A DNA stretch of 64,000 bases from Dehalococcoidia bacterium (GCA_963422525.1 OY730226.1:958453-1022452), one strand, 5' to 3'. Counted from the first letter of the stretch, positions 49,165 to 61,878 are shown. Numbers and translations: made by a program. The notes: generated by a model not told the origin, from the sequence alone.

Positions 49165-50289
49165 ATGGAATCGGACAAGCTGAAATACTGGTTGGCGTTC
49201 AATCGGATTCGCGGCATAGGCAGGGCGCGCTTCAAACTGCTTGAAGACTACTTCGAGTCGATGGAAGCGGCATGGGCTGGCAGCCAAGCGGAATATCGTC
49301 GTGCGGGTCTCGATAGGCGCACGATTGCCTCGATCGTCAGTGGCAAGCAGAAGGTTGACCCCGACGCCGAGATAGACCTGCTGGATCGCAGCGGTGTTCG
49401 CGCGCTCACTTGGCACGACGACGAGTACCCGGCGCGTTTGAAGCAGATATACGACCTGCCGCCGCTCATCTATCTCAAAGGCAGCCTGTTGCCTGACGAT
49501 GAACGCTCGCTGGCGGTAGTGGGCACACGCAATCCGTCAGCGTATGGGCGTCAGGTGACCGAGCGGCTGGTGTATGATATTTCCATCGCAGGTGTTATCA
49601 TCGTCAGCGGCCTGGCGCGTGGCGTGGATGGCATAGTGCACCGCGCCACCCTAGACGCCGGTCAGCGCACAATTGCCGTGCTCGGAAGCGGGCTGGACAT
49701 CATCTACCCGCGAGAGCATAGCAATCTTGCCGAGAAGATTGCTGAAAACGGAGCGTTAATCTCCGAACATCCGCTTGGCGCTAGGCCGGACGCCCGCAAC
49801 TTTCCGCGCCGTAACAGGATTATGAGCGGAATGACACTCGGCACGCTAGTCATAGAGGCGGGCATGAAAAGCGGCGCGCTCATAACCGCGCGGCAAGCGC
49901 TAGATGAGAACCGCGAGGTTTTCGCCGTGCCCGGCAGCATCTACTCGGAGAACAGCAAAGGCGCTAATCGGCTCATCAGAGAGTCGGCAGCGAAGTTGGT
50001 GACCTGCTGTAAGGATGTACTCGAAGAGCTAAACTTGACGGCGGTAACGCAGCAGATAGAGATGACTGCGCTGTTCCCGGAGGATGAGAACGAAGCCGAA
50101 CTGCTGCGATACATCACCTTCGATCCCGTGCATATCGATGAGGTTTGCCGCAGTTCTGAAAGATCCGCGTCCGATGTGAGCGGCGCCCTCGCAATGATGG
50201 AACTCAAAGGACTCGTAAAACAGGTCGGAGGCATGAACTATGTTAGGATGCGTGAAGCCTCCGGTGGATATTCTGTAACCGCAGTGTGA
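49165..50289 (+). CDS. dprA: DNA-processing protein DprA
   Basis: Rossmann-like core (AVVGTRNPSAYG, VSGLARGVDGIVHRATL, AVLGSGLD.IYP) and a C-terminal winged helix. It lies upstream of topA, a common arrangement. Confidence 0.92.
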   Translation: MESDKLKYWLAFNRIRGIGRARFKLLEDYFESMEAAWAGSQAEYRRAGLDRRTIASIVSGKQKVDPDAEIDLLDRSGVRALTWHDDEYPARLKQIYDLPPLIYLKGSLLPDDERSLAVVGTRNPSAYGRQVTERLVYDISIAGVIIVSGLARGVDGIVHRATLDAGQRTIAVLGSGLDIIYPREHSNLAEKIAENGALISEHPLGARPDARNFPRRNRIMSGMTLGTLVIEAGMKSGALITARQALDENREVFAVPGSIYSENSKGANRLIRESAAKLVTCCKDVLEELNLTAVTQQIEMTALFPEDENEAELLRYITFDPVHIDEVCRSSERSASDVSGALAMMELKGLVKQVGGMNYVRMREASGGYSVTAV

Positions 50290-50297
50290 GAGGAAGA

Positions 50298-52592
50298 ATG
50301 GCAAAAGATATTGTAGTCGTAGAATCACCCGCGAAAGCCCGCACGGTCGGGCGCTTTCTTGGCAGCGGATACTCCACGCTTGCCTCGATGGGGCACGTGC
50401 GCGACCTGCCCAAAGGCAAAATGGGCGTAGAAATTGATGATGAAGGCTTCCATCCCACCTACACCGTCATGTCCGACAAGAAGAAGATCGTTACGCAGCT
50501 TCGCAAAGCATCCAAAGATGCCGAGATCGTGTACCTGGCGACCGACCCCGACCGCGAAGGCGAGGCAATATCGTGGCACCTGCTGGACGCCGCGAAAATC
50601 GACGTCTCCAAGGTGAAGCGCGTCGTGTTTCACGAAATCACGAAAGAGGCAATCAGCGAGGCGTTCGACCACCCGCGCGAACTTGACTACAACCTAATCG
50701 ACGCACAGCAGGCGCGCCGCATACTAGATAGGCTTGTCGGCTACCGCCTGAGCCCCGTTCTGTGGGGCAAGGTGAGGCGCGGCTTGTCCGCCGGGCGCGT
50801 GCAATCGGTGGCGCTTCGCCTCGTCGTTGACCGCGAGCGCGAGATTGACGCCTTCACGCCGGTCGAGCACTGGAGCATCGACGCTATGCTCGCCAAGCAG
50901 GCGCTGGTTGATGCCAAGCGTATCGAGTTCAAGGCGGCGCTGCATTCGCTCAAAGACGAGAAGCGGATTGAGATCCCCAACGGCGAACGCGCGAGTGAAT
51001 TGACGACTGACTTGGACGGAGCCGCTTTCAGCGTGGAATCGGTACGGAAACGTGAGACGCGCCGCCGACCGGCAGCCCCGTTCATCACCTCCACATTGCA
51101 GCAGGAAGCCTCCCGCAAACTTCGATTCACCGCGCGCCGCACAATGCAGGTGGCGCAGCAACTCTACGAAGGCTTGGCTATCGGCGACGAAGGTGAAGTC
51201 GGACTCATCACTTATATGCGTACAGACTCCACGAATGTCGCCGCGCCCGCCCTCAAAGAGGCGAGCGACTACATCAAAGCCAAATTCGGCGCAAAGTACG
51301 CCCCCAGAGCGCCCCGTACCTACACGAAGAAGGTGAAGGGCGCGCAAGAAGCGCATGAAGCCGTTCGCCCGACATCCATACTGCGCGCGCCGCAGGACAT
51401 CCGCGCATACCTGAACAACGAGCAATTCAGACTGTACGACCTTATCTGGAAACGCATGCTAGCAAGCCAGATGACGGATGCGCTCTTCGACTCCACCAGA
51501 GTTGACATCACCGCCAAGAGCGGCAAATCGTCGAACGAGTATCTCTTCCGCGCCACCGGCTCCGTCCTGAAGTTCGCCGGCTTCCGCACGCTCTACATGG
51601 AAGGCTCTGACGACAACGACGACGCCGATGAGGACACGCCCCCGCTGCCGGATCTTGCTAACGGCGATTCGCTGGACTGCCTCGGCATTACGCCCGACCA
51701 GCACTTCACGCAGCCGCCGCCGCGCTTCACCGAGCCGACGCTCATTCGTGCCTTAGAAGAGCGAGGCATCGGCAGACCAAGCACCTATGCCCCCATCATG
51801 AGCACCATCATGGACAGGGACTATGTCCTTAAGGACGGCGGAAGATTCGTTCCGACAAGGCTTGGCATCGTCGTTACCGACCTGCTCACCGCCAACTTTC
51901 CGGATGTGATGAATGTAGGCTTCACGGCGACGATGGAGCAGCAGCTCGACAACATCGCCGAAGGTCAGCGCGCTTGGGAGCCGATGTTGAAAGAGTTCTA
52001 CGAGCCCTTCGACCAGCTCATCGAAAAGACGATGAAAGAGGCAGAGCGCGTGCCGCGTGAGCTTCTCGAAGAGGAGACCGGAGAGTTCTGCGAGAAGTGC
52101 GAAAACCCAATGGTCATCAAGTCCGGTCGCTTTGGGCGATTCATGGCATGCAAAGGCTACCCGGAGTGCAAGAACACTCGCCCGATAGAGTCGGACGAAG
52201 AGCGCGCGATCAGAGTGCGCGTAAGCGAAGAGACGGATGCCCACTGCGAAAAGTGCGAACGACCTATGGTAGTGAAATCCGGCCGTAACGGGCGCTTCCT
52301 CGCTTGCAGCGGCTATCCGGAGTGCAAGAACGCCAAACCACTGCCCGTCGGCGTCGATTGCCCGAAGTGCGGCGGTGAGCTGGTGGAGCGCAAGCAGCGC
52401 GGTCGCAATGGCAAGATATTCTACGGCTGCGTTAACTATCCTGAATGCAAGACGGTGGTCAACCCGCTGCCGCAGCCCTGCCCCGACTGCGGCGAACTAC
52501 TCGCCTCCGCGGGGCGCGGCAAGGCTCGCTGCCTGGATGATGCCTGTGGCTATGAGGGCGCTGTGCCGCAGGCTGAGACGGCGGCCGTGTAA
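50298..52592 (+). CDS. topA: DNA topoisomerase I
   Basis: Toprim start VVVESPAKA, the active-site tyrosine region ITYMRTDST, and four C-terminal CxxC...CxxC zinc ribbons. ATG at 50298 after GAGGAAG. Confidence 0.95.
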   Translation: MAKDIVVVESPAKARTVGRFLGSGYSTLASMGHVRDLPKGKMGVEIDDEGFHPTYTVMSDKKKIVTQLRKASKDAEIVYLATDPDREGEAISWHLLDAAKIDVSKVKRVVFHEITKEAISEAFDHPRELDYNLIDAQQARRILDRLVGYRLSPVLWGKVRRGLSAGRVQSVALRLVVDREREIDAFTPVEHWSIDAMLAKQALVDAKRIEFKAALHSLKDEKRIEIPNGERASELTTDLDGAAFSVESVRKRETRRRPAAPFITSTLQQEASRKLRFTARRTMQVAQQLYEGLAIGDEGEVGLITYMRTDSTNVAAPALKEASDYIKAKFGAKYAPRAPRTYTKKVKGAQEAHEAVRPTSILRAPQDIRAYLNNEQFRLYDLIWKRMLASQMTDALFDSTRVDITAKSGKSSNEYLFRATGSVLKFAGFRTLYMEGSDDNDDADEDTPPLPDLANGDSLDCLGITPDQHFTQPPPRFTEPTLIRALEERGIGRPSTYAPIMSTIMDRDYVLKDGGRFVPTRLGIVVTDLLTANFPDVMNVGFTATMEQQLDNIAEGQRAWEPMLKEFYEPFDQLIEKTMKEAERVPRELLEEETGEFCEKCENPMVIKSGRFGRFMACKGYPECKNTRPIESDEERAIRVRVSEETDAHCEKCERPMVVKSGRNGRFLACSGYPECKNAKPLPVGVDCPKCGGELVERKQRGRNGKIFYGCVNYPECKTVVNPLPQPCPDCGELLASAGRGKARCLDDACGYEGAVPQAETAAV

Positions 52593-52683
52593 CCGCCGCC
52601 GCATACTCTCATTATACCCGGGGTTGCTGCCAGAGCGCCCTTTCTGTCAAACTTCGGCCCCGCCTAACTGCATTACAAGCCGG

Positions 52684-53628
52684 ATGTGCGCTTTGCGACT
52701 GCGCCTGTTTGCTATCTTCACTATCCTGTCCCTGCTGCTCATCGCCTGCGACATGCCGGCGGCGAGCAGCCCTGTGTTGCCGTCCCCTGTGCCGACCGCC
52801 ACGCCGCGCGCAACTGCCACGCCTACACCGCCGCCGCCGCCCACTCCAACGGCAGTGCCCACACCGCCGCCGACACCCACGGCAATGCCCACGCCGCCGC
52901 CGATACCCGCCCCAACGGCAGCCGCCATCAGCAGCGCCGCGCCGCCGGACGACACTCCGGGCGCAATCATAGACGCAGCCCTAGTCAACATGCGCAGGCT
53001 TACCTCCTTCCACGCCGATGTGGACGCCGTCTTCAAGGTCGTCCAGACCGAAGCAAGCTTCAGGATGGATGAGCAGACTTTTGGATCTGAGTTCCCCATC
53101 CGCTTCACCGGGGACTTCCAGTCGCCTGATCGCGCCGCCGGCAAGTTGCTGCTGTCGCTCGGTTTCGCAGCCCTCGAAGTGGACATCATCACGATAGGCG
53201 ACGACGCCTACATCACCAATCCTGAAACGGGCATCTGGGAGAGATACCCCCTCATCTACACGGGCATGCCGGACCCCTACGACTTCGTGCTGCTCCCTGT
53301 AGGCGCATCGCGTTACACCGACATTCAAGTCGTAGGCGACAAGACGATTGACGACGTACAGACACAGCACATCAAGGCGAACTTGCACGCCAGCGTACTC
53401 GGCAACTCTTACGACAACCTCTATCTGCAGATGTGGATAGGGGTAGAGGACAACCTCATACGCCGCTTGAGCATAGCAGGCGAAACCACCGCAGACGCGC
53501 AAGACTCCGCAGGCTTGGCAGGCAGCTCGCTCGGCGCAGACGACATCGGCGGCAAAGTCGAATTCAGCATGACCGTAACCTACTCCAACTTCAACCTGCC
53601 TCTAGCAATTGAGCCGCCTATCCAGTAA
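52684..53628 (+). CDS. Putative lipoprotein with a Thr/Pro-rich linker
   Basis: Lipobox LLLIAC after a basic/hydrophobic signal (MCALRLRLFAIFTILS), a long TP-rich linker, then a globular domain of about 200 aa (possibly LolA/LppX-like; I cannot confirm this). The upstream ORF-track extension overlaps topA. Confidence 0.65.
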   Translation: MCALRLRLFAIFTILSLLLIACDMPAASSPVLPSPVPTATPRATATPTPPPPPTPTAVPTPPPTPTAMPTPPPIPAPTAAAISSAAPPDDTPGAIIDAALVNMRRLTSFHADVDAVFKVVQTEASFRMDEQTFGSEFPIRFTGDFQSPDRAAGKLLLSLGFAALEVDIITIGDDAYITNPETGIWERYPLIYTGMPDPYDFVLLPVGASRYTDIQVVGDKTIDDVQTQHIKANLHASVLGNSYDNLYLQMWIGVEDNLIRRLSIAGETTADAQDSAGLAGSSLGADDIGGKVEFSMTVTYSNFNLPLAIEPPIQ

Positions 53629-54280: not shown

Positions 54281-55143
54281 GGCATTCTCTACAGGGGTTA
54301 AAGTGGTGTGGTGCGTCGCGCTGTATGCAAATAGCGAGGCGACGCTAAATCGGGGGGCTGATGTCAGCGCGTCCATACAGCGAAGACAGGCAGCGTCGGC
54401 GCTGTGGCAGCAACCGGCTGCGCAAGTACGGACATCCTAGGGGCAGGCAGCCGTACAGTTGCGGCGATTCCCACTGCAAGTTCACCACCGAAGGTAGCCG
54501 CAGTTACTATTCGGAGGCTGTGAAGCGGCAGGCATTGAGCCTGTACGGAGAAGGTATGAGCGTATCCGCGATAAGCGGGATGATAGGGTGATGGAGGTGA
54601 AACTGTGCGCTGCGCCCCCGTGGGTCAAAGAAAGTCTGTCAGTCGGATGCGGCGGTGAAATTGGAGCGCAGGCGGCGGTGGGCGGTCGGCAAGCCCGCTA
54701 AGGTCATATCCTTTGATGAGATGCGGACATATGTATGTTCAAAGGCGCAAGGGCAAGCATAATTCGGTATGAGGATGGATATATGGATATGGTCGTAGTA
54801 GAAGATGGGTATGGCAGTCTGTGGCATATCTATGAGGTGGGAGGTCGTGATGAGGCTGCCTTTGTGAAACTATATGAGAGTATGCATGATGCGAGGCTGA
54901 GGCTGTATAGGAGCGGTGGCTACAATGCGAACGGGTGGTTGCCATCTGATAGGAGCAAGGTAGGCAAAGGCAGCGAAGTGAACAGGAATGAGGGGTTGGG
55001 CTCTGTGTTGAGGGACAAGTTGAACAGGCTGGTTCGCAAGACGAAGGGCTGCTCAAAGAGCATACGGACGCCGGACGCTTCGTTGGCGCCGATATGGGCA
55101 AGACAAGGCTGGATCTGACACTTCAACGCTTATAGAGAATGCC
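54281..55143 (+). mobile_element. IS1-family insertion sequence, decayed
   Basis: Terminal inverted repeats: GGCATTCTCTACAGGGGTTAAAGTG (54281->) against the reverse complement of 55143<- GGCATTCTCTATAAGCGTTGAAGTG (20/25 identical, first 11 perfect). An internal IS1-type transposase is broken into several frames. No target-site duplication is visible. Confidence 0.75.
54361..55118 (+). pseudogene. IS1-family transposase (InsA/InsB-like), interrupted by stop codons and frameshifts
   Basis: InsA-like zinc finger plus HTH (CGSNRLRKYG...YSCGDSHCKF, ALSLYGEGMSVSAISGMIG). InsB-like pieces lie in different frames (VISFDEMRTYVCSK, IWIW, EVGGRDEAAFVKLY, NRNEGLGSVLRDKLNRLVRKTKGCSKS). There are more breaks than the single programmed frameshift of IS1. 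Confidence 0.75.
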
Positions 55144-55183: not shown

Positions 55184-55213
55184 AAAAAAGAGGGCAAGGC
55201 CGTAGCCCTGCCC
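55184..55213 (-). terminator. Rho-independent terminator of the candidate tracrRNA
   Basis: On the minus strand: GGGCAGGGC-UACG-GCCUUGCCC (9-bp stem, one G.U) followed by UCUUUUUU. Confidence 0.7.
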
Positions 55214-55303
55214 AATTTTATGCCATAAGTCTTGTTAACGGTTGGTACTCTCGCTGACGCGATTTCCCCAAGGTTCCCCGATCTCCCTTCGGCTACAACC
55301 ATT
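55184..55303 (-). ncRNA. Candidate tracrRNA (5' end approximate)
   Basis: The minus-strand RNA would read AAUGGUUGUAGCCGAAGGGAGAUCGGGGAAC-[28 nt]-CAACCGUUAACAAGACUUAUGGCAUAAAAUUGGGCAGGGCUACGGCCUUGCCCUCUUUUUU. The first block pairs with repeat nt 10-36 and the second with repeat nt 1-10 of a minus-strand crRNA, and the RNA ends in a strong intrinsic terminator. The spurious ORF 55159..55344(-) translates to VVAEGRSGN, mirroring IIAEGRSGNNRN from the array. Confidence 0.6.
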
Positions 55304-55436
55304 GGTATAACATATAGCCTTATGCGCACGGGAGAGCATATCATTGTTTTAATGTAGAGGCAATCCTGAATAAGGTATGCTTGCGCCTAAATTGGGTGCA
55401 AGCAGATTGGGCAAGTGACTTGATAAGGAGAGCATT

Positions 55437-58400
55437 ATGAGTACGAATAACGTGAAGTATAGGCTCGGACTTGATATGGGCACGAACTCCATTGGATGGG
55501 CGGCTGTCAAACTTGATACGGATGACAAACCCTGCGGAATACTGGATATGGGCGTCCGTATCTTCCCTGACGGGCGTAACCCAACGGACAAGACGTCCAA
55601 CGCTGTGGAGCGCAGACTTGCGCGTGGACAGCGGCGGCGGCGCGACCGCTACTTGAAGCGCCGTGAAAAACTTTTAAGCGCGCTTGTCGAATACGGCTTG
55701 ATGCCGCAGGACGAGAATGAGCGCAAGGCTATCGCCAATGATAACCTGCTAGACCCTTACGAACTCAGGGCGCGCGCCCTTGACTATCCGCTGAGCCCCT
55801 TCGAATTGGGACGATCTATATTCCATATCGATCAGCGGCGTGGCTTCAAGTCGAACCGCAAAGCGGCGGGCGATGACAACGAAGCCCAAAAGACGCGCGC
55901 CGATATAGATGAACTTCGCCGTCGCATCGCGCAAAGCGGCGCTCGAACGCTAGGCGAATACCTAGCACGCCGTCGCAAGAAGAGCAAAGCCGTCCGAGCG
56001 CGGCCCGATATGGGACTATATCCCGACCGCGCTCTGTACGAGGATGAGTTCGGCAAGATACAGGCAATCCAACAGCCGCATCAAAATCTCAATGACGAAA
56101 ATTGGGACAACTTGCGCAAAATCATATTCTACCAGCGCCCCTTGGAACCTGTGGACTCCGGATGGTGTCTGTTCGAGGACGGAGAGCGTCGTGCGGAGCG
56201 CGCTCTGCCGCTGTTCCAAGAGTTCCGCATGCTTCAAGAAGTCGCCAATCTCAAAATACGGGTTGGCGCGGAGCCGGACCGTTTCCTACATCACGACGAG
56301 CGTGAGCGCGCTATGGAGCGGCTGCGCTCCGGCAAAGACATAACTCTCAGCAAAGGCAAGAACAACACGGCCGCCAACCCCACAAGAGACTTGGGTCTGC
56401 CGTCAGGCGCTACTTTCAATCTTGCCGCCGGTGGCCGCAAAGCAATCAAGGGCGATGAGACGGCAGCAAAGTTAGCGGCGAAACCAAAGACCGAGACGGA
56501 AAAGAAGCCGGCTGAGCCGGGCTTGTTCGGCAAGAAATGGCTTATCCTTTTACTCGACGAGCGCAATGAAATCGTGAAGTTCCTGCTGAATACTGAAGAA
56601 CCGGACGCAGTTCGTGAGAAGGCGATTGCCGATTGGGGGCTGAATGAAGCGCAGGCCGTCGCCGTATCCAATGTCTCGCTCGTGAGCGGCTACGGCAACC
56701 TGAGCGAAAAAGCCATCCGAAAGATACGCCCACACATGCAGAAAGGGTTAGGATACTCGGATGCGGTTCTTGCCGCCGGATACCTCCACCATTCGGACTT
56801 CCGAAACGCCGAATCCCGTGAAAGGCTGCCCTACTACGGCGAAGTTCTCCCCCGAGACGCGGTAGGCGCTGATCCGACCAAAGACCCTGAGAAAGACGGC
56901 GAACCCGCGCGCTACGGTCGCATCGCCAACCCAACCGTGCATATCGGACTGAACCAGTTGCGCCGCGTCGTCAATCGCCTGACGGAGGTTCACGGCAAGC
57001 CGGAAGAGATAGTCGTCGAGCTGGCGCGCGACCTCAAGATGAGCCGTGAACAGAAACGCAACTACGAGCAGCGTCAAAATGAGGGCGGCGATCGCAACGA
57101 GCGTTTTAGGAAGATGCTAGAAGAATCTGGATTAACCGTATCCGCGAACACGCTTCGCAAGCTTCGTCTGTGGGAAGAGCAAGGGCCACCCCAGAAGCGG
57201 ATTTGTCCGTACAGCGGGAAGCCTTTATCCTTCGGCATGGTGGTGTCTGCGCAGACCGAGATTGATCACATCCTGCCATTCTCCCGCACCCTGGACAACT
57301 CAGTGAGCAACATGGTCGTCTGCATGGTCGCCGCCAACCGCGCGAAAGGCAACAGGTCGCCCTACGAAGCGTTCGGGCACAATCCGCCCGGATACTACTA
57401 CGACGAGATACTCGCCAATGTCGCAGATTTTCCCGGCAACAAGCGCTGGCGCTTCCAGACGGACGCCATGGAACGCTTCGAGAGCGATGACGCATTTCTC
57501 GACCGCCAGCTGAACGAAACGCAGTACCTGTCCAGAACCGCCCGCACATATCTTGCCCATCTGTACGACGAGAAAACAGAGGGCAAGCAGAGAGCGCGCG
57601 CCATCCCGGGGCGCATGACGGCTCTGCTCAGGCGCGGCTGGGGACTGAACGGCATGCTGAGCGAGTTTGGGGAAGATGAGACCACTCGCAAGCAGCGCGA
57701 CGACCATCGGCACCACGCGATAGACGCCTTCGTGGTTGCGAATACGACGCCAGGATTGCTTCACCAATTCGCAAGAGCCGCCGGCTCATCCTGGCAGGAC
57801 GCGGCAAAGAGCCTCGCAAAATTGACGCCGCCACCCTGGGAAGGCTTCAGCAGAGAGCATCTAAAACCGTACCTCGACAACATCGTCGTATCCTACAAGC
57901 CTGACCACGGAACGCGCGGCGTTAAGGCAGGCGGCGCAACCACCGGCCAACTGCACAACGAAACTGCTTACGGGATCATAGAACTGGTTGAAGATGGCCA
58001 GTCTGAAATAGTAGCGCGCAAGCCCCTTTCATCAATCAGTCGCAAAGCATTGGATGGCGTGCGAGACCCTGCGCTAAAATCTGCGCTCCTAGAACTTTGG
58101 GACGAAGTTGGCGGCAGTAAGTCCAAATTCGCAGAACGCGCTGAACATAAAGGGGTCTTAATGAACGGACGGCGCCAGAAGGTACGGCGTGTCAGGATTG
58201 TCGAAACACAGCGCGTCATACCAATCAGAGACGGCGCTGGGAATCCGTACAAAGCCTATTTGCCGGGCGGCAATGAGTTCGCCGATATATGGCGGATGCG
58301 CGACGGGAGCTGGCGAACGATCGTCATCCCCACCTTCGACGCCAACCAGCCTGACTTTGACATCGAAAAGTTTCGCCCCAAAACGACTAAAGGCAAGCAT

Positions 58401-58730
58401 AAGGGAAAACCTGACCCAGCCGCGAGGCGACTTATGCGGCTTCAGATAGATGACATGGGGGCCTTCGGAGAGGGGATAGAACGCCGCGTCGTGCGAGTTC
58501 GGAAAATCACAAATGCCAAAGCAGGCGTATCCGTCGTACTGGATGAACATAATGAAGCCAATGTTCCTGCTCGTATAACGCGAGATATGCGTATACGAAG
58601 GGAAACAGGCATAGACGCTGGCATGAAAGAAAAAGCGTACTCCACTCAACAACTCCGCAGACTTGGCTTCCGCAAGATACATGTGGACGAGATAGGGCGC
58701 GTGCGCGACCCTAGACCATTTGCGTCATGA
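55437..58730 (+). CDS. cas9: Cas9, compact type II-C-like (1097 aa)
   Basis: RuvC-I GLDMGTNSIGWA (D13), Arg-rich bridge helix RRLARGQRRRRDRYLKRR, RuvC-II IVVELARD (E528), HNH EIDHILPF...SNMVV...ANRAKGNRSP (H611, N634), RuvC-III HHAIDAF (H760, D763). AAGGAG RBS. It overlaps cas1 by 4 nt. Confidence 0.95.
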   Translation: MSTNNVKYRLGLDMGTNSIGWAAVKLDTDDKPCGILDMGVRIFPDGRNPTDKTSNAVERRLARGQRRRRDRYLKRREKLLSALVEYGLMPQDENERKAIANDNLLDPYELRARALDYPLSPFELGRSIFHIDQRRGFKSNRKAAGDDNEAQKTRADIDELRRRIAQSGARTLGEYLARRRKKSKAVRARPDMGLYPDRALYEDEFGKIQAIQQPHQNLNDENWDNLRKIIFYQRPLEPVDSGWCLFEDGERRAERALPLFQEFRMLQEVANLKIRVGAEPDRFLHHDERERAMERLRSGKDITLSKGKNNTAANPTRDLGLPSGATFNLAAGGRKAIKGDETAAKLAAKPKTETEKKPAEPGLFGKKWLILLLDERNEIVKFLLNTEEPDAVREKAIADWGLNEAQAVAVSNVSLVSGYGNLSEKAIRKIRPHMQKGLGYSDAVLAAGYLHHSDFRNAESRERLPYYGEVLPRDAVGADPTKDPEKDGEPARYGRIANPTVHIGLNQLRRVVNRLTEVHGKPEEIVVELARDLKMSREQKRNYEQRQNEGGDRNERFRKMLEESGLTVSANTLRKLRLWEEQGPPQKRICPYSGKPLSFGMVVSAQTEIDHILPFSRTLDNSVSNMVVCMVAANRAKGNRSPYEAFGHNPPGYYYDEILANVADFPGNKRWRFQTDAMERFESDDAFLDRQLNETQYLSRTARTYLAHLYDEKTEGKQRARAIPGRMTALLRRGWGLNGMLSEFGEDETTRKQRDDHRHHAIDAFVVANTTPGLLHQFARAAGSSWQDAAKSLAKLTPPPWEGFSREHLKPYLDNIVVSYKPDHGTRGVKAGGATTGQLHNETAYGIIELVEDGQSEIVARKPLSSISRKALDGVRDPALKSALLELWDEVGGSKSKFAERAEHKGVLMNGRRQKVRRVRIVETQRVIPIRDGAGNPYKAYLPGGNEFADIWRMRDGSWRTIVIPTFDANQPDFDIEKFRPKTTKGKHKGKPDPAARRLMRLQIDDMGAFGEGIERRVVRVRKITNAKAGVSVVLDEHNEANVPARITRDMRIRRETGIDAGMKEKAYSTQQLRRLGFRKIHVDEIGRVRDPRPFAS

Positions 58731-59623
58731 TAGGCAGAGTAATCGAGATAGCCAACGATGGGCGGCATCTCGCGCGCTCACGCGGGTTCATGACGGTATC
58801 CGTAAATGGCGAGGAACAGGGGCGCATCCCGCTGGACGACATAGCCGTTCTGCTCTGCAACGCGCGTGGTATGACCTACTCCAACGGGCTTATGACCGAG
58901 CTGGCGCGGCGCGGTTCTATCGTCGTGCTGTGCGGTCCTAATTATATGCCGACCGCCTGGATATGGCCCTTGGAAGGTCACCACCTGCAAACCCTGCGTA
59001 TGCGCTGCCAGTTGGAAGCGTCCAAGCCGCTGCGCAAACGCTTGTGGCAGATGATAATCAAAGCGAAGATTACGCAGCAGAGCAACACGCTCGATCTGCT
59101 GGAAATACCCGGCAGCAGCCTGAAATCGCTTGTGCGCCGGGTCAGGTCGGGCGACCCCGACAATGTTGAGGCGCAGGCGGCGCGGCTGTACTGGCGGCTT
59201 CTGTTCGGAAACGACTTCAAACGCGAACGCTTTGGCGCTATGCCCAATCCGCTCCTAAACTATGGCTACACCGTGTTGAGGGCGACGGTGGCGCGGGCGG
59301 TCGTCTCCGCCGGACTTCATCCGTCTCTCGGCGTCCATCATCATAATCGCGGCGATGCCATGTGTCTCGTTGACGACCTGATGGAGCCTTTTCGTCCGCT
59401 GATAGATTATGCCGTCGTTCAGCTGGTTGCGGCAGGGTGCGAAGGGGTAACTACAGACGCCAAGCGCGCGCTTGTGGGAGCGCTGGCAACCGACATGCAC
59501 ACGGACAGGGGCGTTTCGCCACTGCAAATCTGTCTGGAGCGCGCCGCTCAAACACTCGCCCAGTCGTTCGAGGACAAAAAGCCTTCGCTCACGTTCCCCG
59601 GCCAGCCCGTAGTGGCGCAATGA
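58727..59623 (+). CDS. cas1: CRISPR-associated endonuclease Cas1 (type II)
   Basis: 298 aa, with LNYGYTVLRATVARAVVSAGLHPSLGVHHHNRGDAMCLVDDLMEPFRP, typical of Cas1 NMENI/type II. Confidence 0.93.
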   Translation: MIGRVIEIANDGRHLARSRGFMTVSVNGEEQGRIPLDDIAVLLCNARGMTYSNGLMTELARRGSIVVLCGPNYMPTAWIWPLEGHHLQTLRMRCQLEASKPLRKRLWQMIIKAKITQQSNTLDLLEIPGSSLKSLVRRVRSGDPDNVEAQAARLYWRLLFGNDFKRERFGAMPNPLLNYGYTVLRATVARAVVSAGLHPSLGVHHHNRGDAMCLVDDLMEPFRPLIDYAVVQLVAAGCEGVTTDAKRALVGALATDMHTDRGVSPLQICLERAAQTLAQSFEDKKPSLTFPGQPVVAQ

Positions 59624-59633
59624 GAGTTGATCG

Positions 59634-59960
59634 GTGCTAAGCGGCTATCGGCTTATGTGGATGATGGTACTCTTTGACCTTCCCGTGCTCACGAAAACAG
59701 AGCGAAAGAACGCCAACAAGTTCAGAAAGTTCCTGCAAGACCAGGGCTTTGACATGTGCCAACTGTCTGTGTACATGCGCTTCTGCGCCGGCAAGGAACA
59801 GACGCAAGTCTATACGCGGCGTGTTCAATCCGCCTTGCCGCCGTCCGGCAATGTGCAGATTATCTATTTTACCGATAAGCAGTACGAGAACATCGTCAGT
59901 TTCAACGGACCGAAAAGAAATCCCTCCAATAAAAATCCGGAGCAGTTCGCGCTATTTTGA
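59634..59960 (+). CDS. cas2: CRISPR-associated endoribonuclease Cas2 (type II)
   Basis: 108 aa. MWMMVLFDLPVLTKTERKNANKFRKFLQDQGFDMCQLSVYMRF matches type II Cas2. GTG start. Confidence 0.9.
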   Translation: MLSGYRLMWMMVLFDLPVLTKTERKNANKFRKFLQDQGFDMCQLSVYMRFCAGKEQTQVYTRRVQSALPPSGNVQIIYFTDKQYENIVSFNGPKRNPSNKNPEQFALF

Positions 59961-60035
59961 CGCGGCAGACGCCATTTTCAGGCTTGCCGTCAACCTATAT
60001 GCGCCTGATGTCCACCTGCTGGAGCGGTCGGTCGA

Positions 60036-61518
60036 ATTATAGCCGAGGGGAGATCGGGGAACAACCGCAACAGCTTTGCTTCGGCACGCATGGCGTACCT
60101 GAATTATAGCCGAGGGGAGATCGGGGAACAACCGCAACACCTAGCACGATACGGCACATCGTATCTGATTATAGCCGAGGGGAGATCGGGGAACAACCGC
60201 AACTGAGGCTCAAAGCCGGCGCGGGCCGCAGTGATTATAGCCGAGGGGAGATCGGGGAACAACCGCAACAGTACGGAGATGCACTCGCCGATGCTCACGA
60301 TTATAGCCGAGGGGAGATCGGGGAACAACCGCAACTAGTATCGCATGCGCTTGCATGGCGATTTCATTATAGCCGAGGGGAGATCGGGGAACAACCGCAA
60401 CGTAGTGGCGCGGCGGCGGCATAGATGGTAATTATAGCCGAGGGGAGATCGGGGAACAACCGCAACGCGAGTGGACGGCTCTGTTCTGTTTGCCGATTAT
60501 AGCCGAGGGGAGATCGGGGAACAACCGCAACATAGGCGCGCTCTGGGCACGAGGGCGCTATATTATAGCCGAGGGGAGATCGGGGAACAACCGCAACTGC
60601 GCGGCGCACAGGGGGCTCTATGGGCAATTATAGCCGAGGGGAGATCGGGGAACAACCGCAACAGCGCTCGGAGTTCATCGGCTCGGAGTTTGATTATAGC
60701 CGAGGGGAGATCGGGGAACAACCGCAACGGCAAGCGCTTTGTCGAGATACTGGACGCATTATAGCCGAGGGGAGATCGGGGAACAACCGCAACCACTCCG
60801 TAGGACGCCATAGTCGCCGTAGGATTATAGCCGAGGGGAGATCGGGGAACAACCGCAACTATGCCTGAGTTGATGAAATTGTTCCGCTTATTATAGCCGA
60901 GGGGAGATCGGGGAACAACCGCAACAGCACTTTGCGAGTGTGCTGATAGGCTTGGATTATAGCCGAGGGGAGATCGGGGAACAACCGCAACATATCGAGC
61001 TCGTCGTCTTCGAAGGCGTCATTATAGCCGAGGGGAGATCGGGGAACAACCGCAACTACGGCGATGTGCGGCGTCCGTCCACCGAAATTATAGCCGAGGG
61101 GAGATCGGGGAACAACCGCAACTATGTCGTATCGGCGTCCCCCTGCTGCTGAATTATAGCCGAGGGGAGATCGGGGAACAACCGCAACTGTCCAGTGTCT
61201 TTGAGCCACGAGACGCTCATTATAGCCGAGGGGAGATCGGGGAACAACCGCAACCTCAGCATTTGCGTTACGCCGTCCAGATCAATTATAGCCGAGGGGA
61301 GATCGGGGAACAACCGCAACAACTCGGCCCGCGCGTCTGCCACGCTTTTTATTATAGCCGAGGGGAGATCGGGGAACAACCGCAACTACACACGCCGAAC
61401 GCCGTTGTCAAGGGTTATTATAGCCGAGGGGAGATCGGGGAACAACCGCAACAACTCGGCCCGCGCGTCTGCCACGCTTTTTATTATAGCCGAGGGGAGA
61501 TCGGGGAACAACCGCAAC
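60036..61518 (-). CRISPR. CRISPR array: 23 identical 36-nt repeats, 22 spacers of 29-31 nt, predicted to be transcribed on the minus strand
   Basis: The plus-strand repeat is ATTATAGCCGAGGGGAGATCGGGGAACAACCGCAAC, and its minus-strand form is GTTGCGGTTGTTCCCCGATCTCCCCTCGGCTATAAT. Repeat starts: 60036, 60103, 60168, 60234, 60300, 60366, 60431, 60496, 60562, 60627, 60693, 60758, 60824, 60890, 60956, 61021, 61087, 61153, 61219, 61285, 61351, 61417, 61483. Orientation is called from the GTTG start, the TATAAT end and the polarity of the tracrRNA terminator. Confidence 0.97.
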
Positions 61519-61530
61519 GCATTAACGCCG

Positions 61531-61878
61531 ATGCCATTACCCACGACCATGCCGCAAGTTGCTCTCACTGCCAACGCCCGCCTTGCCGCAAGTGATTGGC
61601 CCGACGCAACAAATGACACGCGCGCCAACACCGGGCACACTACCTCAGGAAGTGCGTATCAGCCCGCCAATTCAGCAAAGTCGCTGATACTTGTCGTGGA
61701 CACCTGCACGCCAACCCCCAAAATCGCAACGCCGGTGTTAACACCTACGCCTACCAACAATGCTACTGCCGTTCACATCGACGCGGCGGCATCATCTCTT
61801 GTGGATGTAGTTTTTATAGGAATAGCCACCGCGTTGGGACTAATTGCGCCGGCTTCCACCATGATAGTGCGGCGCTAG
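61531..61878 (+). CDS. Possible small Thr/Pro-rich protein with a C-terminal TM anchor, or a gene remnant
   Basis: This is the non-repeat tail of ORF 61195..61878, with ATGs at 61531 and 61549. It ends ...VVFIGIATALGLIAPASTMIVRR, followed by a weak hairpin (GTCGCG...CGCGAC, 61884-61907) and TTT. No RBS or homology recognised. Confidence 0.25.
   Translation: MPLPTTMPQVALTANARLAASDWPDATNDTRANTGHTTSGSAYQPANSAKSLILVVDTCTPTPKIATPVLTPTPTNNATAVHIDAAASSLVDVVFIGIATALGLIAPASTMIVRR

Follow-up and report, generated by a model that had tools for sequence, protein, structure and literature searches.

Gene content and layout of the locus

The stretch of DNA analysed here, a 64,000-nt window from a Dehalococcoidia bacterium to which all coordinates refer, carries at 55184-61518 a CRISPR locus with the nuclease Cas9. 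A preliminary description of the window had proposed a complete, compact type II-C system at this site, and every element that it listed was recovered in place, with a gene content that fits the proposal. These elements, which include a candidate gene for the trans-activating CRISPR RNA (tracrRNA), are as follows:

55184..55302, minus strand: tracrRNA gene, about 117-119 nt, with a predicted 5′ end and a 3′ end set by the T-tract
55437..58730, plus strand: cas9, 1097 aa, RuvC and HNH nuclease sites intact
58727..59623, plus strand: cas1 (type II, NMENI subtype), 298 aa, its start overlapping the cas9 stop (ATGA)
59634..59960, plus strand: cas2, 108 aa from a GTG start, or 101 aa from an alternative ATG at 59655
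60036..61518, minus strand: CRISPR array, 22 spacers (21 unique) between 23 identical repeats of 36 nt, the strand being assigned from the anti-repeat and the terminator

The three cas genes form a plus-strand operon in the order cas9-cas1-cas2. The tracrRNA gene is on the minus strand, at a distance of 135 nt upstream of cas9, and the array begins 75 nt past cas2. The T-tract ends at 55184, so the start coordinate given in the preliminary description is the 3′ end of the tracrRNA. On its upstream side the locus is bordered by a decayed IS1 fragment and topA, on its downstream side by the gene for EPSP synthase. The neighbouring frames were scanned with Pfam, NCBIfam and PADLOC, and no match to csn2, cas4 or further cas families was found among the frames scanned, the small open reading frames (ORFs) in the gaps being only partly covered. 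Within that scope, the earlier statement that csn2 and cas4 are absent was upheld. The gene complement is cas9, cas1 and cas2 only, and because neither csn2, the mark of type II-A, nor cas4, the mark of type II-B, was found between the flanking housekeeping genes, the type II-C assignment holds. Judged from its sequence, the locus is very probably a chromosomal CRISPR-Cas9 system of type II-C that is intact and provides adaptive immunity to an uncultured host from the Chloroflexota (Dehalococcoidia-like). A plus-strand ORF of 227 aa across the distal third of the array (61195-61878) had no family match and is almost certainly spurious.

Each of the three Cas proteins was recognised by its family model, and PADLOC and Pfam agreed with the NCBIfam naming of Cas9, Cas1 and Cas2. 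Cas9 scored 613 bits against TIGR01865 of NCBIfam (cut-off 100), matching positions 1-1069 of the 1070 in the model, and contained the Pfam domains RuvC_III, HNH_4 and Cas9_a. The catalytic residues D13, E528, H611, N634, H760 and D763 stood in the expected motifs and lined up with the catalytic residues of solved Cas9s, and an arginine-rich bridge helix was present, as the preliminary description had claimed. All six residues were invariant in an alignment of 30 relatives that were 64-93% identical. For wider comparison, 89 related loci were collected, which are cited below by numbers with the prefix L. Cas1 scored 240 bits against TIGR03639 (cas1_NMENI), and its ATG shares four nucleotides with the TGA of cas9; this ATGA overlap, which had been pointed out before, was confirmed in the sequence and recurs in three relatives (L005, L087 and L089). 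Cas2 scored 68 bits against TIGR01573 and was also matched by the PADLOC model Cas2_II, and its counterpart in L005 was called from the equivalent ATG, which corresponds to the 101-aa form.

tracrRNA pairing, array strand and the inserted hairpin

The array contains 23 exact copies of the plus-strand repeat ATTATAGCCGAGGGGAGATCGGGGAACAACCGCAAC. A single repeat-like sequence was found outside the array, in reverse orientation at 55264-55299. Read on the minus strand, the region runs GGTTGTAGCCGAAGGGAGATCGGGGAAC...CAACCGTTAACAAG... into a 9-bp GC-rich hairpin (55213-55192) and six T residues ending at 55184, giving an anti-repeat at 55234-55298 that is followed by an intrinsic terminator. When the repeat and the tracrRNA were folded together with RNAcofold, the energy was -85.8 kcal/mol and the pairing fell into two blocks, the lower one between CAACCGUUAAC and nucleotides 1-10 of the repeat in the CRISPR RNA (crRNA). 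From its 5′ end, the tracrRNA is divided as follows:

55273..55298, minus strand: upper-stem half of the anti-repeat, TTGTAGCCGAAGGGAGATCGGGGAAC, 26 nt, pairing with positions 10-35 of the crRNA repeat in the cofold
55245..55272, minus strand: inserted hairpin CTTGGGGAAATCGCGTCAGCGAGAGTAC, 28 nt inside the anti-repeat, predicted to form a three-way junction with the crRNA
55234..55244, minus strand: lower-stem half of the anti-repeat, CAACCGTTAAC, pairing with GTTGCGGTTG, the 10 nt at the start of the crRNA repeat, with one bulged U
55184..55233, minus strand: 3′ half with AAG, a small nexus-like hairpin, the CATAAAAT motif, the GC-rich terminator hairpin (55213-55192) and the U-tract

A search of the 61 related loci with a full 36-nt repeat found a homologous tracrRNA in 55, mostly upstream of cas9 on the opposite strand and, in L002 and L004, between cas2 and the array. 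The candidate tracrRNA of the preliminary description is thus backed by an anti-repeat and a terminator on the minus strand and by conservation across related loci. In the homologues the 3′ half has UAACAAG, which hardly varies, together with a small hairpin, CAC(C/A)AAAU and the terminator hairpin. The motif CCGTTAACAAG is almost invariant among the related loci, and it also occurs in the tracrRNAs of Ghh1 and Sdo, two characterised systems that are compared below. In 34 homologues compensatory changes were seen at 7 of the 9 consensus pairs of the 3′ half, and the terminator hairpin covaries. Rfam had no family match for the tracrRNA or for anything else in the locus.

The tracrRNA has the same sense as the plus-strand repeat, and for that reason it pairs only with minus-strand transcripts of the array. 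By this reading of the sequence, transcription of the array almost certainly uses the minus strand and is antisense to cas9, which the preliminary description had not mentioned. Among the related loci, the orientation of the repeat was the same wherever the array stood downstream of the cas genes. It is extremely unlikely that the array is instead read from the plus strand together with cas9-cas1-cas2, as one long precursor with a leader beside cas2 in the manner of type II-A. Read-through is physically possible for an array that directly follows cas2 on the same strand, and several relatives have a short conserved CGGTC motif and a hairpin between cas2 and the first repeat. However, the terminator and the conserved 3′ structure of the tracrRNA lie on the minus strand, as do the only array transcripts with which the anti-repeat pairs, and on that strand the repeat starts with GTTG and closes with a -10 box, like other type II-C systems. 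In addition, the cas-proximal hairpin of L069 and L031 is followed by a run of T on the minus strand only, so it would terminate minus-strand array transcripts.

With transcription from the minus strand, the repeat in crRNA sense is GTTGCGGTTGTTCCCCGATCTCCCCTCGGCTATAAT, and each copy closes with the -10 box TATAAT. The sequence TTGTTC lies 17 nt upstream, and with both elements in each repeat, every repeat-spacer unit probably has its own promoter. Among 51 distinct related repeats, T31, A32 and T36 were kept in 50, 51 and 46, respectively, with positions 33-35 varying freely; TAnnnT at positions 31-36 was found in 45 and TG at positions 28-29 in 19. As a sequence pattern, the conserved T31, A32 and T36 correspond to the -10 element of sigma-70 promoters. 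Pairing with the tracrRNA does not explain the conservation of this end, because the pairing is frequently lost there (0-8 mismatches out of 9). Two results of a consensus promoter scan count against the reading of the locus as a working system: no full -35/-10 promoter was reported in the repeats, where the sites are missed because the -35 element matches at only three of six positions, and no promoter was reported upstream of the tracrRNA. Each repeat is said to carry a promoter in Neisseria meningitidis and Campylobacter jejuni, in work attributed to Zhang et al. 2013 and Dugar et al. 2013. Repeat promoter activity has been shown for Neisseria, and for the window the conserved elements point by analogy to Neisseria-style promoters inside the repeats. 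The type II-C arrays of both N. meningitidis and C. jejuni are transcribed antisense to the cas genes (PMC3737331).

In the mechanism that we propose, the minus strand of the array would be read in the direction of cas2, with starts about 6-8 nt inside the next spacer, and the resulting crRNA would comprise a guide of about 23-25 nt followed by the repeat. The tracrRNA would then pair in two blocks with the 28-nt hairpin between them, forming a three-way junction, and Cas9 with the dual RNA would cut DNA flanked by a protospacer-adjacent motif (PAM) with its RuvC (D13, E528, H760 and D763) and HNH (H611 and N634) sites. Finally, Cas1-Cas2 would insert new spacers, probably at the cas-proximal end.

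The three-way junction stands where other Cas9 guides have only a bulge. The split of the anti-repeat was measured in 55 related tracrRNAs, of which 54 were tabulated and that of L003 was read by hand. The spacing between the two pairing blocks was bimodal, with a contiguous anti-repeat in 38 and an insert of 18-31 nt in 17. The insert was seen in the window and also in L001, L004, L005, L007-L011, L013, L015, L038, L084 and L086-L089. All inserts folded as hairpins, mostly with an inner stem of 3-6 bp and a tetraloop, and the stems varied (UCGC/GCGA, CUCG/CGAG, CCGC/GCGG, GUCC/GGAC, GACC/GGUC, GGCC/GGCC and GGGUG/CACCC). When the 11 distinct hairpin cores were aligned, 93% of the cells paired, and slid controls collapsed. 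The covariation score was 0.873 compared to 0.226 in shuffles, none of 500 reaching 0.873, in an alignment that was centred on the predicted hairpins and so leans towards structure.

Other results are less favourable to the hairpin. That of the window is weak when folded alone (-7 kcal/mol, z = -1.2), and the close relatives L002 and L003 do without it. No Cas9 insertion or residue pattern that tracks the hairpin was found, and the few discriminating columns follow the phylogeny. Literature searches of moderate depth turned up no description of a split anti-repeat. We consider the inserted hairpin to be a real and possibly dispensable variant. That the 28-nt element is a functional module of the guide RNA rather than neutral baggage is doubtful on present sequence evidence. 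If it were, the hairpin could set the RNase III cut site, stabilise the binding of Cas9 or block hijacking by foreign guide-like RNAs, and these Chloroflexota Cas9s would use a guide architecture without earlier characterisation. The covarying hairpin in the anti-repeat is the sole feature of the locus that goes beyond the routine, and it may merit the attention of specialists.

Spacer turnover and signs of activity

The spacers are 29-31 nt long, and spacer 20 is the same as spacer 22. The counts in the preliminary description, 23 identical repeats and 21 unique spacers, were both correct. A possible degenerate 24th repeat after 61518 was rejected, as its alignment score was reached by 37% of random windows. 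The same description had called the array active or recently active, and this was supported by a comparison with L005. The two stretches are collinear from dprA to a methyltransferase gene beyond the array at about 93% nucleotide identity. Cas9 is 93% and TopA 99% identical, the tracrRNA differs at one base and the repeat is identical, yet none of the 18 spacers of L005 is found in the window. Across the related arrays, 995 of 1005 spacers were unique.

The cas9 genes of the window and L005 differ by 77 non-synonymous and 76 synonymous codon changes, compared to 5 and 23 in topA; Cas9 evolves faster than the neighbouring genes. The divergence is mosaic. Nucleotide identity to L005 falls to 66% in codons 551-600 (57087-57236), whereas most other 50-codon windows are 95-100% identical and three more, with dips at residues 151-250 and 951-1000, reach 85-90%. 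The stretch at codons 551-600 looks like a recombination patch in which L005 has the unusual allele. Residues 551-600, which lie just before the HNH catalytic motif, hold 24 of the 77 amino-acid differences.

Protospacers were searched for in several collections. The whole array had no match among 50,697 phage records, and against 72,556 plasmids it gave no protospacer but 14 weak, chance-level matches of 27-40 nt (E = 0.4-5). One strong plasmid match (H1, from Azospirillum thermophilum) was due to repeat similarity to a CRISPR array and was discarded as a protospacer. Eight 19-20-mers from spacers of the window and L005 gave no accepted protospacer in IMG/VR; the single match there (L090) agreed with spacer 21 over 19 nt but at only 2 of the 11 that remained, and was rejected as chance. 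About 1000 spacers of related arrays likewise had no match outside the arrays in the window or in any related locus fetched. Every spacer search was negative, and none yielded a PAM.

It is very unlikely that the locus is a silent or decaying remnant, in which genes that look intact have outlived acquisition and interference. Such a state would fit the lack of a protospacer for any spacer searched in the phage, plasmid and IMG/VR sets, the decayed IS1 element adjoining the tracrRNA gene, and L086 and L088, which keep cas9, the tracrRNA and an identical repeat but have lost cas1 and cas2. However, missing protospacers are expected because the host is uncultured and its viruses are barely sampled, and the IS1 remnant is common to the window and L005 and thus predates the spacer turnover. 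The three cas frames are full length, with end-to-end matches to their family models and intact catalytic residues; none of the 23 repeats differs from the others, and the array has no degenerate repeat at its end; and the spacer set is wholly different from that of a relative with a 99% identical TopA.

An intact, working system is therefore the reading that we keep, with some further points to be set against it. The first is the uniformly negative protospacer search. The second is the AlphaFold model of Cas9 (pLDDT 64.8, pTM 0.31), which is too poor to add support. The third is that this group does not retain the adaptation module in every case. In L086 and L088, both from sample ERZ19489113, the Cas9s are 74-77% identical to that of the window and the repeat is identical, a tracrRNA is present, and cas1 and cas2 are lost. 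These two loci look like interference-only derivatives. In both (L086 4001-8600 and L088 4001-7950) the array starts about 50 nt past the cas9 stop, and L086 has a lone repeat followed by a gap of 729 nt.

Some features of the arrays relate to spacer acquisition. Degenerate repeats in relatives were found at the cas-distal end, and together with the CGGTC-like motif they suggest, at the level of sequence, that spacers are acquired at the cas-proximal end. This motif often abuts the cas-proximal repeat in relatives. The gap between cas2 and the first repeat (59961-60035 in the window; also L003, L007-L011, L020, L031, L069, L087 and L089) often holds a long inverted repeat, which in L069 and L031 is a clear minus-strand intrinsic terminator. 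The elements in this gap may serve both as a terminator for array transcripts and as a leader-anchoring site for spacer integration. Spacer duplications were seen in the window (61321-61350 and 61453-61482), L005 (11492 and 11557), L003 (10555 and 10620) and L004 (11927-12288, a block of three spacers), and in all four cases they sit towards the cas-distal end.

Relation to characterised Cas9 systems and neighbouring sequence

In the protein database, one protein was 93% identical to the Cas9 of the window, the next was at most 77% identical, and more than 120 clusters were at least 62% identical. Relatives with names or genomes came from Chloroflexota or Dehalococcoidia assemblies, all four genome matches were Dehalococcoidia assemblies, and the named relatives of the neighbouring topoisomerase I were all from Chloroflexi or Chloroflexota. 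In the JGI metagenome collection at least 556 stretches encode relatives of this Cas9, mostly at 37-51% identity. In the library searched, no paper linking Cas9, Dehalococcoidia and type II-C was found.

The best solved matches were II-C-type proteins of about 1080 aa (E = 1e-77 to 1e-53), which places the enzyme with subtype II-C, and structures of Cas9s of about 1053-1056 aa and of 1368 aa matched the nuclease core only (E = 1e-31 to 1e-12). We take the structures of about 1080 aa to be of the Geobacillus and Neisseria types, those of about 1053-1056 aa to be of the S. aureus type and those of 1368 aa to be of the S. pyogenes type. The best solved relatives were Geobacillus-type Cas9s (PDB IDs: 9ar4, 8jtj, 8uza and 8uzb; E = 7e-77 to 6e-71), presumably ThermoCas9 and GeoCas9. 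These aligned from the RuvC-I motif to about residue 968 with the same domain order and catalytic motifs, at an identity that we estimate from the alignment as about 30% (262 bits over about 960 residues). At the C terminus, the part expected to recognise the PAM aligned poorly or not at all, and the repeat and tracrRNA family of the Geobacillus-type systems differs from that of the window. NmeCas9 of N. meningitidis (PDB IDs: 8ja0, 6kc8 and 6jdq) matched over residues 3-780 only (E = 4e-58). Its system shares the layout of tracrRNA, cas9, cas1, cas2 and array; its repeat too is 36 nt long with a GTTG start and a -10-like end, its spacers are 30 nt, and its array is antisense to the cas genes (PMC3737331). 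For the proposed repeat-borne promoters it serves as the mechanistic model. Beyond such general features, its repeat and tracrRNA sequences are unrelated to those of the window.

A closer relationship was found with two biochemically characterised members of clade IX of Gasiunas et al. 2020 (PMC7606464), Ghh1 from a Hot Lake hypersaline mat metagenome (Ga0008833_1001252) and Sdo from Sulfitobacter donghicola. The guide sequences of supplement file 4 of that source were set against the window and the 55 related tracrRNAs. In these sequences the guide-RNA family is the same as that of the window, with a GUUGCGG repeat start and with CCGUUAACAAG right after the anti-repeat, followed by a small hairpin, then CAC(C/A)AAAU and finally a GC-rich terminator hairpin. 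Ghh1 Cas9 has 1094 aa compared to 1097 aa in the window, the repeats are related (GUUGCGGUUGGCCCCUGAUCUCCAAGCGGCUAUGGU in Ghh1, GUUGCGGUUGUUCCCCGAUCUCCCCUCGGCUAUAAU in the window), and the tracrRNA core is built alike: CCGUUAACAAG comes after the anti-repeat, a small hairpin and a motif rich in A follow, and the GC-rich terminator at the end has a CUGCGG/CUACGG loop. In contrast to the window, the anti-repeat given for Ghh1 is contiguous and without an inserted hairpin. The closest characterised enzyme found was Ghh1, whose N-terminal 399 residues, the only ones compared, were 42% identical to the Cas9 of the window (E = 4e-70). Sdo was more distant, at 38% identity over the first 399 residues. 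As listed in the same source, it comes from an alphaproteobacterial host, its tracrRNA motif is the same as that of the window (GCCGUUAACAAG...CACCACAUU...GC hairpin), its repeat begins GUUGCGGCUGG... and it has no inserted hairpin. The PAM listed for Ghh1 is N(C>D)M(A>C)RN(A>B)AY(C>T), which is not transferable at this distance, and that for Sdo is NRRNTT; the two differ from each other, so neither can be carried over.

A further array of this repeat family was seen in an unannotated stretch of a plasmid of Azospirillum thermophilum (NZ_CP029356.1, 666790-667620), with 65% identity over 824 nt to the array of the window, which extends the guide family into Alphaproteobacteria.

The preliminary description had raised the possibility of a new small Cas9 lineage, and this did not survive: there are more than 120 relatives at 62-93% identity, and the repeat and tracrRNA family is common to the characterised Ghh1 and Sdo. 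A stronger form, in which the enzyme would represent a new compact lineage whose guide RNA and PAM have properties not seen in any characterised enzyme, is in our view very improbable. The distances lend it something, since the identity to the nearest solved structures is only about 30% by our estimate (262 bits over about 960 residues) and the closest characterised enzyme found is 42% identical over 399 residues, as does the extra hairpin in the tracrRNA, which is absent from the Ghh1 and Sdo guides. However, in the repeat (GUUGCGGUUG...GGCUAUNNU) as in the core of the tracrRNA (CCGUUAACAAG, nexus, CACNAAAU and GC hairpin) this system belongs to the Ghh1 and Sdo family, close relatives (L002 and L003) dispense with the hairpin, 1097 aa is an ordinary length for type II-C, and relatives are numerous both in the protein clusters and in the 556 metagenome stretches. 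From its sequence, then, we classify this Cas9 as one more uncharacterised enzyme of a branch that is known and populous, and its size is ordinary for II-C.

The locus is biologically routine, one more intact type II-C system, and it belongs to a Cas9 branch that is common in uncultured Chloroflexota and shows fast spacer turnover between near-identical hosts. As a candidate tool, the locus supplies a Cas9 of 1097 aa whose identity to the nearest tested enzyme, over the part compared, is about 42%. A guide can already be designed because the repeat, the ends of the tracrRNA and its conserved core are defined. The value as a tool is useful but not special, because hundreds of similar candidates exist.

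Three other features of the neighbouring sequence were recorded. A 374-aa protein (49165-50289) matched the ShosA model of PADLOC (E = 6e-68). It is most likely, from its sequence and context, the housekeeping DNA-processing protein DprA and not a Shosta defence gene, because its gene is next to topA in the usual dprA-topA pairing, and the corresponding protein of L005 has DprA Pfam domains. Between topA and the IS1 remnant, an ORF of 417 aa (52375-53628) contains a 30-nt tandem repeat of 2.6 copies (52831-52920); the ORF had no Pfam match above the gathering cut-off (DUF2092 was below threshold, E = 0.007) and no PADLOC match. The IS1 remnant itself is a decayed IS1-family transposase (54361-55118) just upstream of the tracrRNA terminator. 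Its fragments lie in different frames, an N-terminal zinc-finger part at 54361-54591 (E = 5.5e-10) and a C-terminal part at 54735-55118 (E = 8e-5), both far below the family cut-off, and the remnant is also present in L005.

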